From the sequence record MK373793.1: DNA of 43,157 bases. One strand, 5' to 3'. The position numbers and the translations under genes are program-made. Shown here piece after piece: positions 25,584 to 43,117 of this stretch. Numbering within the stretch: position 1 is the stretch's first letter; the number at the start of each line of letters is the position of its first letter. Source of the stretch: Escherichia phage vB_EcoS_MM01. The notes below the pieces were generated by a model that searched no databases, was not told the origin of the DNA, and saw only the letters and a list, made by a program, of their open reading frames with translations.

Positions 25584-26254
25584 TGGCAGATTATGGCGCG
25601 ATAATTGATGTTAACGGAAACCCATTCATCACCCCCGCTTCAACTCCTTTTTGTCTTTACCGAAAGTATACTTTTCAGTCTTCGGGTGATTCTGCGGCGC
25701 ACAGTGTAACTCAATACTTACCTTTCAATTCAAGCTATCCAGTTAGCGTTTTCATTAAAACAAGCGCGCCAGGACAAGGTGTGGCAGTGATAGCATACAA
25801 CATAACAGAAGGTCCAAACGCAGGAACAATATATATAAATGGCACAAACTATGCGGGTCAATCATTCACATTGACGGCCTATGTTTTCGCTATATTCCCG
25901 CAAAATCTGCCAGATTGGGGAATGGCGATATGGGATGCGAAAGGCGATCTTGTACTGACCAACGAGAGCAAGGTGCTAAGCGACCTTTTTACTGTTAATG
26001 GAAGAGGTATAGATATTGACTCAACTTATCAAGGCAGCGTTGCGGTTTGCCCAGCGGCACTTGGCGCCCTTAACGTTTACCAGGTCCAGAATGGACAGCA
26101 AATAATAAGGTCCGCTACTGCTGGCGTTTCCTGTAGGTACAATGGATCAACAACAAGAATAAATGCAGTTCCATTGATAAACGGAACGCAGGCGTCAGGA
26201 GGAACAACCAACGGAGCAAGGGTTACGGCAATTTATACAGCAGCATACGACTAA
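25583..26254 (+). CDS. small tail-tip associated protein (paralogue 2)
   Basis: 223 aa, N-terminus MADYGAIIDVNGNP; ATGA-coupled to previous gene. Confidence 0.45.
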   Translation: MADYGAIIDVNGNPFITPASTPFCLYRKYTFQSSGDSAAHSVTQYLPFNSSYPVSVFIKTSAPGQGVAVIAYNITEGPNAGTIYINGTNYAGQSFTLTAYVFAIFPQNLPDWGMAIWDAKGDLVLTNESKVLSDLFTVNGRGIDIDSTYQGSVAVCPAALGALNVYQVQNGQQIIRSATAGVSCRYNGSTTRINAVPLINGTQASGGTTNGARVTAIYTAAYD

Positions 26255-26279
26255 AGCCCCTTCCGGGGCTTTTCATTTA

Positions 26280-26501
26280 TCAACCTCCACAATCGTGGTC
26301 TTTGAAATTCCGGTCAGAGACGTACTGAAATGAGAATGGATATCCAGCCCTAAGTAAAAGCTCCTCACCGCGTTTCTGCGTACCAAAAATATAAACCGAG
26401 TAATTCATCCCGCCTGACTCATAAACAGCCGTACAAGTGCGTTCTGGCATCGTAGAGCACCCACCTAACACCATTGCCGCGATAACGATTAATTTTTTCA
26501 T
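26280..26501 (-). CDS. lipoprotein (superinfection-exclusion candidate)
   Basis: internal ATG of track ORF 26280..26555 gives MKKLIVIAAMVLGGC lipobox; AGGTGA RBS. Confidence 0.65.
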   Translation of the reverse strand: MKKLIVIAAMVLGGCSTMPERTCTAVYESGGMNYSVYIFGTQKRGEELLLRAGYPFSFQYVSDRNFKDHDCGG

Positions 26502-26511
26502 CTTATTCACC

Positions 26512-26616
26512 TTAGAACCCTTTAAAGTTGGAAGCCAGAAGAAGAACCCAAACAAAGAAACCAGTTACAGCAGCGCCGAAGGTGAAGGCCATTACGTTGG
26601 TTGCGAAGTTAGTCAT
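26512..26616 (-). CDS. small membrane peptide (34 aa)
   Basis: MTNFATNVMAFTFGAAVTGFFVWVLLLASNFKGF; preceded on minus strand by motif A/B unit. Confidence 0.4.
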   Translation of the reverse strand: MTNFATNVMAFTFGAAVTGFFVWVLLLASNFKGF

Positions 26617-26681
26617 TTTTGAATCCTTAGTAAGTATTTTTCGTTTCGATGGAGTAATAGTACCGCATCCTTGCGGATTGT

Positions 26682-26701
26682 CTTTAGCAATTCGTGCTAT
26701 T
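26682..26701 (-). repeat. junction motif A copy (aatagcacgaattgctaaag on minus strand)
   Basis: supplies stop codon of upstream methyltransferase-like ORF; motif B at 26641-26650. Confidence 0.6.
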
Positions 26702-27340
26702 CGCCAAGAATACAGCTCTTGCAAATCCACGAGGTGTAAGACTGCGAATTACCTTCGTCTTCTTGCTCTTGCCACCGAGTTTCTTATATTGGTCAGAGAA
26801 ACCATCATTAACATCAACAGGAAGCAACTCAGGCCACTTAAATCCATTACCAGACCAAATGCACGTCTTCTTAGGGTATGCGTCCCTTGACTTTATTAGG
26901 TCGCTAAAAAACGGGTGTAAATCATCTTCAGGCAAGTATCCACCAAACTCGTAAGGGTGGAATGTGTTATCAGGCTTTCGCCACAGAGATGACAGTACAC
27001 TGATTGGATTCTCAATCATATAAGGCACGCCGTACTTCTCAGCCAGGTTAAAAGCAACCTTGCAAGTTTCTGCCGCTTCAGTCTGGAAGTTTGGGTTAGC
27101 TTGGCGCTTACGTTCAAAATGCCTTGACCCACTCACAGCCAAATCAGTGCATGGTGGGAAAGCCAATATGAAATCAGGTTTCACATCAAAATCGAAGTTT
27201 GCATCAATCCATGCGTTAACGTACTTAATGTTATCGTGCTCAACCTTCGCATTCAAATCGCCGTAACTACCGTGGTCAGACTCGTCAAAGTTGAAGCAGT
27301 AACAAGTGTGACCAGCCTCAGCCCTAGTTAGCGCAGCAGA
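26684..27340 (-). pseudogene. cytosine-C5 DNA methyltransferase-like ORF, apparently 5'-truncated
   Basis: PDFILAFPPCTDLAVSG resembles C5-MTase motif IV (PC dipeptide) and MIENP the ENV motif, but no FxGxG motif I; frame open to 27340 with no ATG/GTG, only TTG at 27256. Confidence 0.45.
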
Positions 27341-27359
27341 CTATGACAAGGTTGTCGCA

Positions 27360-27866
27360 ATGCGCGAGGTTCTTTGCAACATTCCGGCTTATGATAGTAT
27401 TGTTAACAGCGAAACGGCTCAGAAGGAGTTATCAATCTTTGGTGAGATTCTCGGTGTTGGTGTAAAGATTCGAATTGACCACGTTGACGTTGTTGATGGA
27501 GTTGTTCATATCACAGATTATAAGACCACAGCAGACGCAAGCCCTGAAGGGTTCGGTAAATCAGCTTTCTCTCATGGATACTTGGCTAAAATGGCATTGC
27601 AGCGCGATCTGTTTGTAAAAGCATTTAACGAGAAGAGGAAGGTAGTCGTTGGTCTTATGGCACAAGAAAAAACTGAACCTTACTTACCCATGAAGTACAC
27701 GCTAACAGATGATCAGCTTCGTATTGGCAGATTGCAGTATCTTGAAGCCCTAGCTACATACAAGAAATGCAAGGAGCTTGATATATGGCCTGGTTACTCA
27801 AATGGGATTACAGAGCAAGAGCTAGTTATCCCTGATTGGGCAACTAAGCAGTATAAAGAAATTTAA
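27360..27866 (+). CDS. PD-(D/E)xK exonuclease (lambda Exo/YqaJ-like), possibly N-terminally truncated
   Basis: catalytic-core-like IDHVDVVDG...ITDYKT near N-terminus; frame opens only at 27312. Confidence 0.55.
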   Translation: MREVLCNIPAYDSIVNSETAQKELSIFGEILGVGVKIRIDHVDVVDGVVHITDYKTTADASPEGFGKSAFSHGYLAKMALQRDLFVKAFNEKRKVVVGLMAQEKTEPYLPMKYTLTDDQLRIGRLQYLEALATYKKCKELDIWPGYSNGITEQELVIPDWATKQYKEI

Positions 27867-27885
27867 ATAGCACGAATTGCTAAAA
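27866..27885 (+). repeat. junction motif A copy (aatagcacgaattgctaaaa)
   Basis: starts in the TAA stop of the exonuclease; motif-B variant catcaacaacgaacgagg precedes Erf ATG. Confidence 0.6.
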
Positions 27886-27939
27886 CAAAAAGGGATAGCT
27901 GAGGTATAGTTATCCCATCAACAACGAACGAGGTTAAAG

Positions 27940-28590
27940 ATGCAAATTTCAGAATCATGCAAGTCAATTTTAAATGCACTACACACTGCAAAAGCAATGT
28001 TTGCAAAGGCTGAGCGATCTAAGCAGAACTCGCACCTTAAAAACAAATACGCTACACTTGAAGACGTATTGGCGGCTGTCGAGCCTGGTTTAGATGAGTG
28101 TGGCTTGGTGATGTTCCAAAGCGTTCTTGATGATGAACAAACTAATCGCATGAAGGTTGAGACGAAGCTATTCCATGCAGAGTCAGGCGAATGGGTTAGC
28201 TTCTTAATGATTGTCCCAATCAGCAAGAATGACGCTCAAGGTTACGGCTCTGCGCTTACATATGCTCGACGTTACGGCATTACAGCGGCTTTAGGTCTTA
28301 GTCAGGCAGATGACGATGGTAATCTAGCTGCGAAGGGTGTTAAAGACTTTAAGCGCGAGCTTGAGAAGTGCAATACTCTTGATGAGCTTCGTGGCGTATG
28401 GAAAGAAGCCAAGCAATCACTTGATGCGGCTGGTTGGAAGGTTTTCGAGCCACACATTATCGAGCGCAAAGCAGAGATTGAAGCGAATGCAATGACGGGC
28501 TTTAACCCAGCAACACCTAAGAAAGTTGCAGAAAAAAGTAGTACTCAAGAAAAAGTTGAAGTAGAATCTCAACAAATCGACACATTTTAA
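27940..28590 (+). CDS. Erf-family single-strand annealing protein
   Basis: 216 aa; GSALTYARRYG-type segment; between exonuclease and SSB. Confidence 0.6.
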   Translation: MQISESCKSILNALHTAKAMFAKAERSKQNSHLKNKYATLEDVLAAVEPGLDECGLVMFQSVLDDEQTNRMKVETKLFHAESGEWVSFLMIVPISKNDAQGYGSALTYARRYGITAALGLSQADDDGNLAAKGVKDFKRELEKCNTLDELRGVWKEAKQSLDAAGWKVFEPHIIERKAEIEANAMTGFNPATPKKVAEKSSTQEKVEVESQQIDTF

Positions 28591-28630
28591 ATTAAACGGG
28601 GCTTCGGCCCCAATTAAAGAGAGATAAAAA

Positions 28631-29056
28631 ATGCACGTAATTACTGGTCAGATTCGCCGCGCTCCATTCACAAAAGAAGGTCAAAATGCAAATGGTAACT
28701 GGAAGATGTTTGCAATCGATCTCTCTGAAAGTTTTAAAAACAAAGACGGTCAGCGAGAGTACACATCATATCGCGCAGTTTTCTTTGCCAAAGAGTCAAT
28801 GTTAGATTGGTATAACGAGGCATTTCAGGAAGGTAAGATTGTTAGCGTTAGCGCAGAGAGCTTGTCTGTTGATGTTCGGGATAAAGATGGTAAGACTTAC
28901 GTGACTGTTAATATGAACAACCCTCGACTTGAGTTTAGTCAGCGTGGTGATTCACAACCGCAGCAAAATAATAGACAGCAGCAACAACAGAATCAACAAC
29001 AGCAAAGGCAACAACCACAGCAACAACAGCAATTTAATGACGATATACCATTCTAA
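28631..29056 (+). CDS. ssb: single-stranded DNA-binding protein
   Basis: Gln-rich linker and C-terminal acidic tip FNDDIPF, like bacterial SSB DDDIPF. Confidence 0.7.
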   Translation: MHVITGQIRRAPFTKEGQNANGNWKMFAIDLSESFKNKDGQREYTSYRAVFFAKESMLDWYNEAFQEGKIVSVSAESLSVDVRDKDGKTYVTVNMNNPRLEFSQRGDSQPQQNNRQQQQQNQQQQRQQPQQQQQFNDDIPF

Positions 29057-29059
29057 AGA

Positions 29060-29085
29060 TAAAGCCCCTTTCGGGGCTTTTTTTA
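29060..29085. terminator. bidirectional rho-independent terminator
   Basis: agcccc-tttc-ggggct hairpin with A run before and T run after, between convergent ssb and tail fibre genes. Confidence 0.6.
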
Positions 29086-34278: not shown

Positions 34279-34698
34279 GTGAAGATTACAGATAAAGAAG
34301 ATTACATTGAGTTTTACCCAGGCGCTGTAAAGTCATGCCCAAAGGAGGATGACGAACAGATCTTTTGCTCTGATTGGGTTAAGTATCATTATCCGCAGAT
34401 TGTTTACTGGCATACAGTTAATGAAGGTATGAAATCAATTGGGTCAGCAAGGAAGGATGCAGCCAAGGGTTTGCTTAAGGGTGTATCAGATTGCTTATTC
34501 CTGATACCCGAATCGCTGCGTGGCAAGTACCCTTTCGGAGCTATAGAGTTAAAGAGAGCTGGCAAGACCCAGGCTAGTCCAGTCAGCGATGAACAAAGGT
34601 CTTTCCTTAAAAGCGTAAGAGAATCAGGCGGCTTCGCAGGTGTCGCATACGGGCGCGAAGGTTTTCTTGCAGCATTCAAAGAAATGATTTCAAAATAG
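34279..34698 (+). CDS. VRR-NUC domain nuclease (putative)
   Basis: 139 aa; PD-(D/E)xK-like DCLFL...GAIELK; GTG start coupled to helicase stop. Confidence 0.5.
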   Translation: MKITDKEDYIEFYPGAVKSCPKEDDEQIFCSDWVKYHYPQIVYWHTVNEGMKSIGSARKDAAKGLLKGVSDCLFLIPESLRGKYPFGAIELKRAGKTQASPVSDEQRSFLKSVRESGGFAGVAYGREGFLAAFKEMISK

Positions 34699-34713
34699 CA
34701 CTAATTGCTAAAG
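34694..34713 (+). repeat. junction motif A copy (aatagcactaattgctaaag)
   Basis: TAG stop of VRR-NUC gene lies within motif; motif B at 34745-34754; ATG 34777. Confidence 0.6.
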
Positions 34714-35891: not shown

Positions 35892-37028
35892 ATGGCAACT
35901 GCAAAAATTACCAACGAAGAGCTGCGCGAAGAGCTGGCGAACGGTATGACTAACAAAGCAATCGCAGAGAAGTACGGTATGAATATTCGCAATGTTGAGT
36001 TGCGTCGTAGTAAATTGGCAAAGAGTGGAGAATTGCACGGAAACCCAGGCATCAAAAAGCTAGTTCCTGACGGTTATATGGTTAAGGGAACATCAACGAT
36101 GATTGATGCCGAAGGTAACGAAAAGATTCGCTGGGTTAAAACATCCGTAGATAATGAGCGCCTTGAGGTTTTAATGGAGCAGGCTCGAGAGGCATTTTGC
36201 TCAGAGTTGCCAAAGGCTATTCCATCTGAATCACCGAATGTTAACTTTGATGATAACACACTTGCGATGTATCCAGTTTTTGATTTACACATTGGAGCAA
36301 TGGCACACAAACACGAGTGCGGCGAAAACTACGACACAGCAACAGCCGAGAAAGTAATGAATGGATTCTTTGATTACGCTGTTGATAAGGCGCCAAACTC
36401 TAAGAATGCTGTATTGGTATTGGGTGGCGATTTCCTGCATTACGATTCACTTGAGGCAAAAACACCAGCTTCAGGGCATATCTTAGATAGCGACAGTCGT
36501 TATGCAAAAATTGTTTATGTTGCAATCCGGTCAGTACGTCGTGCAATTTCTCGAATGATGGGGAAGCACCAGAATATCGACATTAAAGTTATAAGCGGAA
36601 ACCATGATGAAGCGGGAATGGTTTGGTTGCGTGCGGCGCTGGCTGCATTTTATGAAGATGAGCCGCGTGTAAGCGTTGACGTTAGCCCTGCCGCTATGAT
36701 GATGACCAGCTTTGGAAGCACGCTTATTGGTTATACTCATGGGCACCAGATGCGTAAAGCTGATACAAGACTGACTGTTATGGCAACTGATTTCCGTAAG
36801 TTGTTTGGGCAAAGTGAGTATGTTTATACACATAGTGGCCATTGGCACTCACAGAAAATTACAGAGACGAATCTTGGTATTGATGAAGTTCACGGCCAGC
36901 TAGGTAGCCCAGATGCGTACTCGGCAAATGGCGGCTGGCGCTCTCAGCGTCAAGCGGCAGTAATCGTTTATCATAAGGAATTTGGCGAGGTTGGTCGCTT
37001 CATCTGTCGCCCAAAAATGTTTAGCTAA
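35892..37028 (+). CDS. calcineurin-like metallophosphoesterase with N-terminal HTH-like domain
   Basis: motifs DLHIG, GGDFLHYD, GNHDE, GHWH in order; N-terminal TNKAIAEKYGMNIRNVELRR resembles an HTH. Confidence 0.65.
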   Translation: MATAKITNEELREELANGMTNKAIAEKYGMNIRNVELRRSKLAKSGELHGNPGIKKLVPDGYMVKGTSTMIDAEGNEKIRWVKTSVDNERLEVLMEQAREAFCSELPKAIPSESPNVNFDDNTLAMYPVFDLHIGAMAHKHECGENYDTATAEKVMNGFFDYAVDKAPNSKNAVLVLGGDFLHYDSLEAKTPASGHILDSDSRYAKIVYVAIRSVRRAISRMMGKHQNIDIKVISGNHDEAGMVWLRAALAAFYEDEPRVSVDVSPAAMMMTSFGSTLIGYTHGHQMRKADTRLTVMATDFRKLFGQSEYVYTHSGHWHSQKITETNLGIDEVHGQLGSPDAYSANGGWRSQRQAAVIVYHKEFGEVGRFICRPKMFS

Positions 37029-37046: not shown

Positions 37047-37099
37047 CGATACCCACGAAAGTGGGTATTATTGTTTTATCGAAACGAGAGGAGATAGAA

Positions 37100-37588
37100 A
37101 TGAATTGGCATGAATTTTTCATATACGATAATGGAACTTTGTTTTGGAAGGTGAAGCCTTCAAGAAGTGTCTTGGTTGGCAGCGTTGCTGGTGGCTTGCA
37201 CTCCGCTGGATATGTTGACTTAAGGTTAAATAAAAAAGCATACTTGTGCCATAGAATTATTTGGGAGATGCATAACGGGATAATACCAGAAGGTATGGAG
37301 ATTGATCATATAAATCACATTAGGGATGACAACAGAATTGAGAATTTGCGACTTGTGAGCAGGCTAGAAAACCATAGAAACAGATCAAAACCAAAAAACA
37401 ATAAAAGCGGATTTACTGGAGTGAGGCAAACGAATAGTGGTAAGTGGACATCTTACATATGCTTAAGGGATGAAAATAACAAGAGGTATATAAAAACATT
37501 ATATTACGGAGATTCTTTTGATTGCGCTGTATCTGCAAGAGTCGAGGCTGTGAAAGGCTTTGGGTTTCATGATAATCACGGGGAGTAA
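37100..37588 (+). CDS. HNH endonuclease with AP2-like DNA-binding domain
   Basis: IDHINHIRDDNRIENLRLVSRLENHRN plus C-terminal GFTGVRQ...GKWTSYI. Confidence 0.65.
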   Translation: MNWHEFFIYDNGTLFWKVKPSRSVLVGSVAGGLHSAGYVDLRLNKKAYLCHRIIWEMHNGIIPEGMEIDHINHIRDDNRIENLRLVSRLENHRNRSKPKNNKSGFTGVRQTNSGKWTSYICLRDENNKRYIKTLYYGDSFDCAVSARVEAVKGFGFHDNHGE

Positions 37589-37594
37589 GAAGGA

Positions 37595-37858
37595 ATGACT
37601 AGAGAGAAATATAACAGAGAAATCATTGGCCTGAATGGCGAAACTGCAATCGTGGACGTATATCGAGTTCTTTCGGCTTTTAATGTGCAAAACCCAATGG
37701 CACAGCACGCAATCAAAAAGCTCCTTTGTGCAGGGTTAAGAGGCCACAAAGACTTAAACGAGGATGTTGATGACATTATCGATTCATTGCAGAAAATGAA
37801 AACCTTCTTAGGTCAGCAGCAAATAGCACAAATTGCTAAAGACAATAATCAAAAGTAA
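37595..37858 (+). CDS. hypothetical protein (87 aa)
   Basis: ORF track; embeds a motif A copy in its C-terminal codons. Confidence 0.45.
   Translation: MTREKYNREIIGLNGETAIVDVYRVLSAFNVQNPMAQHAIKKLLCAGLRGHKDLNEDVDDIIDSLQKMKTFLGQQQIAQIAKDNNQK
37822..37841 (+). repeat. junction motif A copy embedded in coding sequence (aatagcacaaattgctaaag)
   Basis: encodes QIAQIAK; motif B at 37873-37882 precedes next gene. Confidence 0.55.
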
Positions 37859-42227: not shown

Positions 42228-42247
42228 TTTTAGCAATTCGTGCTATT
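42228..42247 (-). repeat. junction motif A copy (aatagcacgaattgctaaaa on minus strand)
   Basis: encodes C-terminal NSTNC* of upstream small gene; motif-B variant catcgagacg at 42188-42197. Confidence 0.6.
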
Positions 42248-43097: not shown

Positions 43098-43117
43098 CTT
43101 TAGCAAAAAGTGCTATT
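43098..43117 (-). repeat. junction motif A copy (aatagcactttttgctaaag on minus strand)
   Basis: motif-B variant catcaacaacgaggag lies between it and ATG 43050. Confidence 0.6.

Follow-up and report, generated by a model that had tools for sequence, protein, structure and literature searches.

The question raised by this locus is why two genes diverging from a single point both appear to lack their beginnings. The window analysed here is the whole 43,157-bp stretch of DNA of Escherichia phage vB_EcoS_MM01 (sequence record MK373793.1), which looks like the complete genome of an Rtp-like siphovirus (Drexlerviridae, Braunvirinae). Near position 27324 a leftward open reading frame (ORF) resembling a C5-cytosine methyltransferase gene meets, head to head, a rightward ORF resembling an exonuclease gene. 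The initial annotation proposed that a deletion or recombination breakpoint had taken away both 5' ends together with a divergent promoter region, with unusually compact proteins using non-canonical starts as the alternative. It suggested hidden Markov model (HMM) profile searches and a comparison with related phages as checks. The analysis presented here favours a genuine deletion of about 1.4 kb, of recent date and independent of homology, from which two pseudogenes resulted, and we assign to this reading a probability of roughly 0.8.

The reading frames at the junction were found as initially described. In the minus strand, a stop codon at 27341-27343 leaves the frame open only from 27340 downwards, and there is no ATG or GTG ahead of a TTG at 27256 (codon 40). 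This frame encodes AEAGHTCYCFNFDESDHG, then AFPPCTDLAVSG, then MIENP. Motif IV (FPPC, within FPPCTD) and an ENV-like motif are thus kept, while motif I, of the form FxGxG, is gone. In the plus strand, the frame opens at 27312, after stops at 27300-27302 and 27309-27311, and has no ATG before 27360. The first 55 residues of the 168-residue plus-strand ORF contain the D...DxK core (IRIDHVD...ITDYK). Positions 27312-27340 are open in both frames, giving an overlap of 29 bp where about 30 bp had been noted. It had also been claimed that neither gene has promoter signals or the "motif A/B unit" seen elsewhere in the window, and the motif search and a sigma-70 scan indeed found none facing the remnants.

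The breakpoint in comparison with intact relatives

The locus has the tail/cor block on one side and the recombination module, with exonuclease, erf and ssb, on the other, as in rtp44-rtp49 of phage Rtp. A megablast search with positions 26200-28700 gave 98 phage records, most of which belong to Escherichia phages in the Rtp / ACG-M12 group, and the nearest relatives have a nucleotide identity of about 80-85%. Eight relatives were compared at the junction: A110b (L001), Rtp (L002), ACG-M12 (L003), AugustePiccard/Bas01 (L005) and four metagenomic contigs, namely Logan contig L006 and the three ENA contigs L007-L009. The genome of A110b (MG065688, "Campylobacter phage A110b") is collinear with the entire window, though rotated, at 72-87% nucleotide identity, and the window is in total 1,081 bp shorter. 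This nearest public relative was deposited (MG065688.1) as "UNVERIFIED: Campylobacter phage A110b" with Campylobacter jejuni as host. The genome is that of a Braunvirinae (Rtp-like) phage, collinear with coliphages, and the Campylobacter host label looks doubtful.

The similarity to the window breaks at one nucleotide, 27324, in all eight relatives. The junction is far beyond chance, because eight independent relatives break the alignment at the same position. Window positions 26230-27324 correspond to positions 1501-2581 of A110b (L001) and positions 27324-27937 to L001 3981-4599, leaving 1,399 bp of A110b unmatched. The break is at the same base for L007-L009, with a gap of 1,402 bp, and for AugustePiccard/Bas01, with a gap of 2,503 bp. 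The match to L006 stops at 27324, and the matches to Rtp and ACG-M12 start there. At the base level, with a slash marking the joint, the left donors read ...CAGCTTCAGCCC / AATC..., the right donors ...AAGGAGC / TAGTTAGC..., and the window ...CAGCCTCAGCCC / TAGTTAGC....

The intact order in A110b and L007-L009 consists of a leftward 229-residue gene starting MVIWSLFDGSGLAVKDW, a spacer of about 300 bp, small rightward ORFs and the rightward 321-residue exonuclease gene. In the A110b type, about 930 bp separate the methyltransferase and exonuclease genes, and this interval contains two or three small ORFs in addition to a promoter unit and the AT-rich spacer. The small rightward ORFs have 84, 65 and 64 codons in A110b and 86 and 65 codons in the metagenomic contigs, with another of 90 codons in L008 and L009; they match PHROG families without assigned function. 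The spacer between the divergent genes of A110b, L006 and L007 contains an extremely AT-rich, TATATA-repetitive stretch (L001 2780-2900). This stretch may be a regulatory region, or a fragile one favouring breakage.

Against these relatives the window keeps only residues 18-229 of the methyltransferase and residues 142-321 of the exonuclease. The small ORFs of the A110b segment have no tblastn match anywhere in the window, and the missing segment as a whole is not found elsewhere in it: the only sensitive blastn and tblastn matches were copies of a 19-bp promoter motif. A relocation, inversion or translocation was rejected, because the A110b segment is absent from the rest of the window. By this comparison the junction is a deletion, with both flanks collinear with the relatives. 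Contig L006, which carries the closest methyltransferase (93.4% amino acid identity to the remnant), has an upstream region of the A110b type, and for this reason the parent most likely lost about 1.4 kb. No closer intact parent was found in IMG/VR with exact flank 24-27-mers. The intact relatives, with genes of 229 and 321 residues about 930 bp apart, support the initial proposal of a breakpoint that took away the divergent promoter region and both 5' ends. They also refine it: the methyltransferase lost only 17 codons and the exonuclease 44% of its length.

The methyltransferase and exonuclease remnants

The A110b methyltransferase aligns by tblastn with positions 27322-26687 over residues 18-229, at 88.7% identity. 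The remnant has an amino acid identity of 93.4% with the homologue P0003 and a nucleotide identity of 85% over 719 bp with bas01_0030 of AugustePiccard (229 residues). The full-length protein has 229 residues in A110b, Bas01 and L006-L009 and starts with MVIWSLFDGSG, which holds motif I. Its homologues comprise 7,019 proteins of 225-252 residues, and 1,464 phage records contain a full-length member of the family; the annotation "Dcm-like C5 cytosine methyltransferase" is found in several of these. The FxGxG pattern is present within the first 30 residues of 115 of the 120 homologues listed. In all close homologues SLFDGSG is found at residues 5-11, where F7, G9, S10 and G11 are invariant, and this fragment lies inside the deleted 17 codons. 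Residues P73, P74 and C75 (motif IV) and E121, N122 and P123 (motif VI) are invariant in 39 homologues. The remnant resembles the short phage Dcm-like methyltransferases (phrog_757, bas01_0030) in keeping PPC, ENP and KK, but differs from them in having lost residues 1-17 with the FDGSG of motif I, the start codon and the promoter.

The assignment to the methyltransferases was examined by profile and by structure. In the profile search of the kind initially suggested, the intact A110b homologue matches phrog_757 "DNA methyltransferase" from end to end (E 2.5e-85). The Pfam profile PF00145 gives 12.9 bits for the remnant and 15.4 bits for the full-length homologue, both below the gathering cut-off of 22. 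Searching the PDB by sequence, with the single protein and with a 39-sequence profile, produced no meaningful match for the Dcm-like protein. The AlphaFold2 (AF2) model of the intact homologue has a predicted local distance difference test (pLDDT) value of 87.6. In a Foldseek comparison with the PDB, the best 18 matches and most of the top 50 are methyltransferase domains of DNMT3A/3B (E about 4e-5, probability 1.00, template modelling (TM) score only 0.4-0.5). The model upholds the catalytic-domain fold of the C5-methyltransferases for the intact homologue, closest to DNMT3A/3B.

A homologue of this protein has been characterized. The 236-residue Dcm of the KarlJaspers-like Drexlerviridae phage K42 makes 5-methylcytosine (5mC) at the CCWGG site, as found by liquid chromatography-mass spectrometry of multicopy single-stranded DNA (msDNA), and residues C82, E128, K175 and K176 of the K42/KarlJaspers Dcm were mutated as active-site residues (bioRxiv 10.1101/2023.08.16.553469). 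The KarlJaspers Dcm is 60% identical to the A110b homologue over the full length. Its four residues correspond to C75, E121, K168 and K169 of the A110b protein, and all four are kept in the remnant. The description of the minus-strand ORF as methyltransferase-like is therefore supported both by its best structural matches, DNMT3A/3B, and by a 60%-identical homologue shown experimentally to be a C5 methylase. However, a product started at the TTG (codon 40) would be without β1, motif I, helix A and β2 of the Rossmann fold (AF2 elements E2-6, H12-19 and E23-28). The remnant is probably inactive, and 5mC formation is predicted to be lost.

The A110b exonuclease aligns with positions 27324-27863 over residues 142-321, at 91.1% identity. 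This protein has 321 residues in Rtp (rtp47), ACG-M12, A110b, Bas01 and L007-L009. The full-length homologue matches phrog_412 "exonuclease VIII" and covers positions 21-227 of the Pfam profile PF12684 (DUF3799), whereas the remnant covers only positions 70-227 of 233 (62.3 bits, cut-off 26). The residues IRIDHVD...ITDYK, kept in the remnant, align with D748, D759 and K761 of RecE (PDB code 3H4R). The full-length protein aligns with the RecE nuclease domain in two stretches, in which GTLSHTYILE corresponds to GTAFHCRVLE of RecE. In RecE, His-652 is an active-site residue in place of Glu-85 of lambda Exo, and the nuclease domain has about 300 residues (PMC11611040). The equivalent of His-652 is H58 of the intact homologue and is located inside the deleted 141 codons; the remnant is also without the first 95 or so residues of the RecE nuclease-domain chain in the alignment. 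Compared with RecE/exonuclease VIII and rtp47, the window protein belongs to the same PD-DxK family and keeps the equivalents of D748, D759 and K761, but only residues 142-321 are left, the deletion having taken H58 together with the N-terminal portion of the domain that forms the ring. The position of the gene upstream of erf and ssb is the same as in Rtp and T1. From this alignment, the exonuclease remnant is likely to be inactive.

Promoter units, terminators and neighbouring genes

The features of the region and the copies of the 19-bp motif are presented in Table 1. The motif, which has an internal dyad TAGCA-N5-TGCTA, occurs in eight copies in the window against 0.03 expected, and the "motif A/B unit" of the initial annotation is accordingly real. 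The orientation of the motif always matches that of the downstream gene, and 20 nt further on a TATAAT-like hexamer is found, followed by CATCRAAACGA, a Shine-Dalgarno (SD) sequence and ATG. The orthologous sites of Rtp, ACG-M12, A110b, Bas01 and the metagenomic contigs carry the unit too. Its layout suggests a phage-specific class of promoter in which an element at -50 to -32 replaces the -35 box. A full-text literature search on the 19-bp motif found no paper. The dcm promoter unit is located 58-75 bp upstream of dcm in all dcm-bearing relatives examined (A110b, Bas01 and L006-L009), and this position falls in the deleted segment.

Table 1. Features of the window at and around the junction, with the copies of the 19-bp motif
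Feature	Position	Strand	Basis or remarks
Dcm-like C5-cytosine methyltransferase remnant (pseudogene)	26684..27324	-	codons 18-229 + stop; without start codon, ribosome-binding site, promoter unit and motif I
Deletion joint	27324..27325	none	one ambiguous C (27324) common to both flanks, no filler bases
RecE/ExoVIII-type PD-(D/E)XK exonuclease remnant (pseudogene)	27324..27866	+	codons 142-321 + stop
Longest ATG ORF of exonuclease remnant	27360-27866	+	168 residues
19-bp motif copies, plus	1993-2011, 2797-2815, 27866-27884, 34694-34712, 37822-37840	+	motif search
19-bp motif copies, minus	26683-26701, 42229-42247, 43099-43117	-	motif search
Retained promoter unit, cor side	26640..26701	-	AATAGCACGAATTGCTAAA 26701-26683, TACTAT 26662-26657, then CATCGAAACGA
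Small hydrophobic protein, 34 residues (MTNFATNV...), intact	26512..26616	-	ORF and SD context; conserved in A110b
Cor-like superinfection-exclusion lipoprotein, 73 residues, intact	26280..26501	-	phrog_1119, E 1.9e-26
GC-rich hairpin terminator, end of plus-strand tail-gene block	26253..26272	+	terminator scan
Retained promoter unit and erf leader	27866..27939	+	motif 27866-27884, TATAGT 27905-27910
Erf-family single-strand annealing protein, intact	27940..28590	+	Pfam PF04404 ERF, E 5.3e-27; 95.4% identical to A110b Erf
SSB-like protein, intact	28631..29056	+	syntenic with rtp49 (putative SSB); 84% identical to A110b protein

The unit on the cor side is located at the 3' end of the methyltransferase remnant, a place where the relatives keep it too; it is the putative promoter of the downstream small membrane protein and cor genes. 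Within this unit, a small GC hairpin, CCGCATCCTTGCGG, occupies 26663-26676 and separates the -10 hexamer from the 19-bp motif; the relatives keep a similar GATCGCAAGGATGCGATAC. The hairpin may act as a terminator for the methyltransferase transcript or as a modulator of the promoter. On the cor-like gene itself, the domain PF24052 Phage_lipoprotein is recorded in the homologues of L007 and L009. The neighbours cor, erf and ssb, which keep their own promoter units, should be unaffected.

The remnants appear to be in a different situation. The sigma-70 scan found no site facing or ahead of the 5' end of either remnant, with counts at or below the shuffled expectation. The exonuclease remnant has no upstream source of transcript, because the terminator at 26253-26272 ends the tail-gene block. 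A second hairpin terminator at 29061-29080 bounds the region on the other side. Since no promoter faces either remnant and hairpin terminators bound the region, neither has an evident source of transcript. In the A110b spacer, a simple scan found no convincing rightward promoter, and the loss of such a promoter with the spacer is an assumption.

Two further observations were made elsewhere in the window. An ORF at 37061-37588 (plus strand) is homing-endonuclease-like, of the HNH type (phrog_99, E 1e-58), and may be a mobile insertion; the gene directly 5' of it (35892-37028) encodes a DNA-repair exonuclease. A 139-residue ORF at 34279-34698 (plus strand) matches phrog_824 over positions 49-176 of 265 only. 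A second truncation at this place was rejected, because the ORF is of full length and 91% identical in A110b.

Origin of the junction and its consequences

Neither remnant contains stops or frameshifts. The ratio of nonsynonymous to synonymous substitution rates (dN/dS) against A110b is 0.049 for the methyltransferase remnant and 0.030 for the exonuclease remnant, compared with 0.035 for the intact erf and 0.049 for the intact ssb. The values for the remnants equal those of the intact neighbours, which implies that nearly all of the divergence arose under purifying selection and that the deletion is probably recent. The private junction is consistent with a recent event.

These data allow us to propose that about 1.4 kb was lost spontaneously from a non-essential region by illegitimate end joining, with no more than 1 nt of homology. 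Codon 17/18 of the leftward methyltransferase gene would have been joined to codon 141/142 of the rightward exonuclease gene. The methyltransferase would have lost the dcm promoter unit, the ribosome-binding site, the start codon and the S-adenosylmethionine (SAM)-binding motif I, and the exonuclease its N-terminal 44% with the His-652 equivalent; the AT-rich spacer and two or three small ORFs would have gone as well. The outcome would be two pseudogenes without a native start or a facing promoter, in a phage predicted to be Dcm-negative and exonuclease-negative. That the region is non-essential is suggested by the existence of this genome, and the event is probably one of the phage itself and not of the assembly.

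Some points weigh against such a deletion. Its size (1.4 or 2.5 kb) and the extent of microhomology are estimates only, since the nearest relatives share just about 80-85% nucleotide identity with the window. Searches of IMG/VR and the JGI metagenomes with exact 30-mer and 24-mer patterns and a degenerate 27-mer did not find the junction, which so has no independent replication. A weak SD sequence, AAGG, is located 7 nt ahead of the ATG at 27360, and the 168-residue exonuclease fragment could be translated from read-through RNA. There is finally a small but real chance that the joint is a finishing artefact, in which two contig ends were abutted over an unassembled but intact 1.4 kb, for example after a coverage dropout in the AT-rich spacer. 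The missing segment does contain an extremely AT-rich stretch, of a type under-represented by some library preparations. The junction is unique to this sequence, and related genomes are circularly permuted and differently rotated in the databases. However, the joint has no Ns or filler, the ends of the window do not coincide with it, and about 1.1 kb of the missing segment (the small ORFs and the 5' half of the exonuclease gene) is ordinary in composition and would assemble normally. A misassembly by repeat collapse is not possible, because the flanks share only 1 nt. An assembly artefact is therefore regarded as unlikely.

The junction might instead be the boundary of a mosaic module, formed by homologous or site-specific exchange between two phages. 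The Drexlerviridae are mosaic at this locus, and Rtp, ACG-M12 and Bas01 differ in the genes between cor and the exonuclease. This reading is very improbable, since module exchange joins whole genes at conserved linkers, while here both genes are cut internally, and since both flanks are best matched by the same A110b-type arrangement with the intervening segment simply absent. Compact functional proteins made from the TTG at 27256 and the ATG at 27360 are, in our estimation, slightly harder still to defend. Both frames are open, the PPC/ENP and D...DxK cores are kept, and the weak AAGG could serve the ATG. However, the homologues that align have 225-252 and 321 residues, not the 190 and 168 of the two ORFs, and no homologue norm of the size of the remnants was found. 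Full-length alignment with complete homologues of equal size, which the initial annotation had named as refuting evidence, was not obtained. The TTG product would be without the first elements of its fold, as described above, the exonuclease fragment is without the His-652 equivalent and about 95 residues, and both ORFs lack a facing promoter unit or promoter-like site. The alternative of compact proteins with non-canonical starts, raised in the initial annotation, was rejected on the family sizes.

If the deletion is accepted, it is a further question whether it was selected. In the KarlJaspers-like phage K42, Dcm methylates the CCWGG site of the msDNA of retron Ec86 and so triggers an abortive defence; dcm was disrupted in four of four K42 escapers, and one of them, mut#1, had lost 2,262 bp with four genes (bioRxiv 10.1101/2023.08.16.553469). 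By analogy, the deletion in the window might be an escape from a host defence sensing phage C5-methylation (retron Ec86/Eco1), a tentative refinement of the deletion reading which we consider possible but doubtful. The 60% identity of the KarlJaspers Dcm to the A110b homologue, across which the active-site residues map, speaks in its favour, as does the fact that the apparently recent deletion removes exactly the promoter and start of dcm. The lost 5' half of the exonuclease gene and the small ORFs would then be collateral or, just as tentatively, additional triggers of defence. However, the exonuclease loses far more than dcm, and a neutral loss or a loss during laboratory passage fits the data equally well. 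The argument is by analogy. Restriction of the McrBC type was set aside as a selective agent, because CCWGG (Dcm-type) methylation is not known to be an R-mC target of McrBC.

The K42 escaper mut#1 is a close parallel, in that a spontaneous kilobase-scale deletion in a T1-like phage abolished a short (about 230 residues) Dcm-like methyltransferase of the same family. It differs in that dcm is among the early genes of K42/KarlJaspers, while here it is located between cor and the recombination module, and in that the deletion in the window also truncates an exonuclease. Viable deletions in non-essential regions are familiar in headful and cos phages, for example the b-region and nin deletions of lambda. 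The window is like these in the loss of accessory genes by apparently illegitimate recombination with little or no homology and in the truncation of the flanking ORFs; it differs in that a divergent promoter region is spanned.

On the preferred reading, the junction is a deletion scar of a type already familiar, and the group of phages is a known one. It is important for annotation that both ORFs would be pseudogene remnants, not a 190-residue methylase and a 168-residue exonuclease. The predicted phenotype is Dcm-negative, with an Erf/SSB recombination module working without a dedicated exonuclease, and both functions together with the small ORFs would be dispensable for this Rtp-like phage. 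This may be useful to those who employ the phage in studies of host range or defence. The deletion removes a member of the family that triggers retron Ec86 and may be a natural counterpart of the laboratory escapers, although this would not be a new principle. If it is indeed an escape scar, a search for such junctions among phage genomes could reveal which genes trigger host defences.

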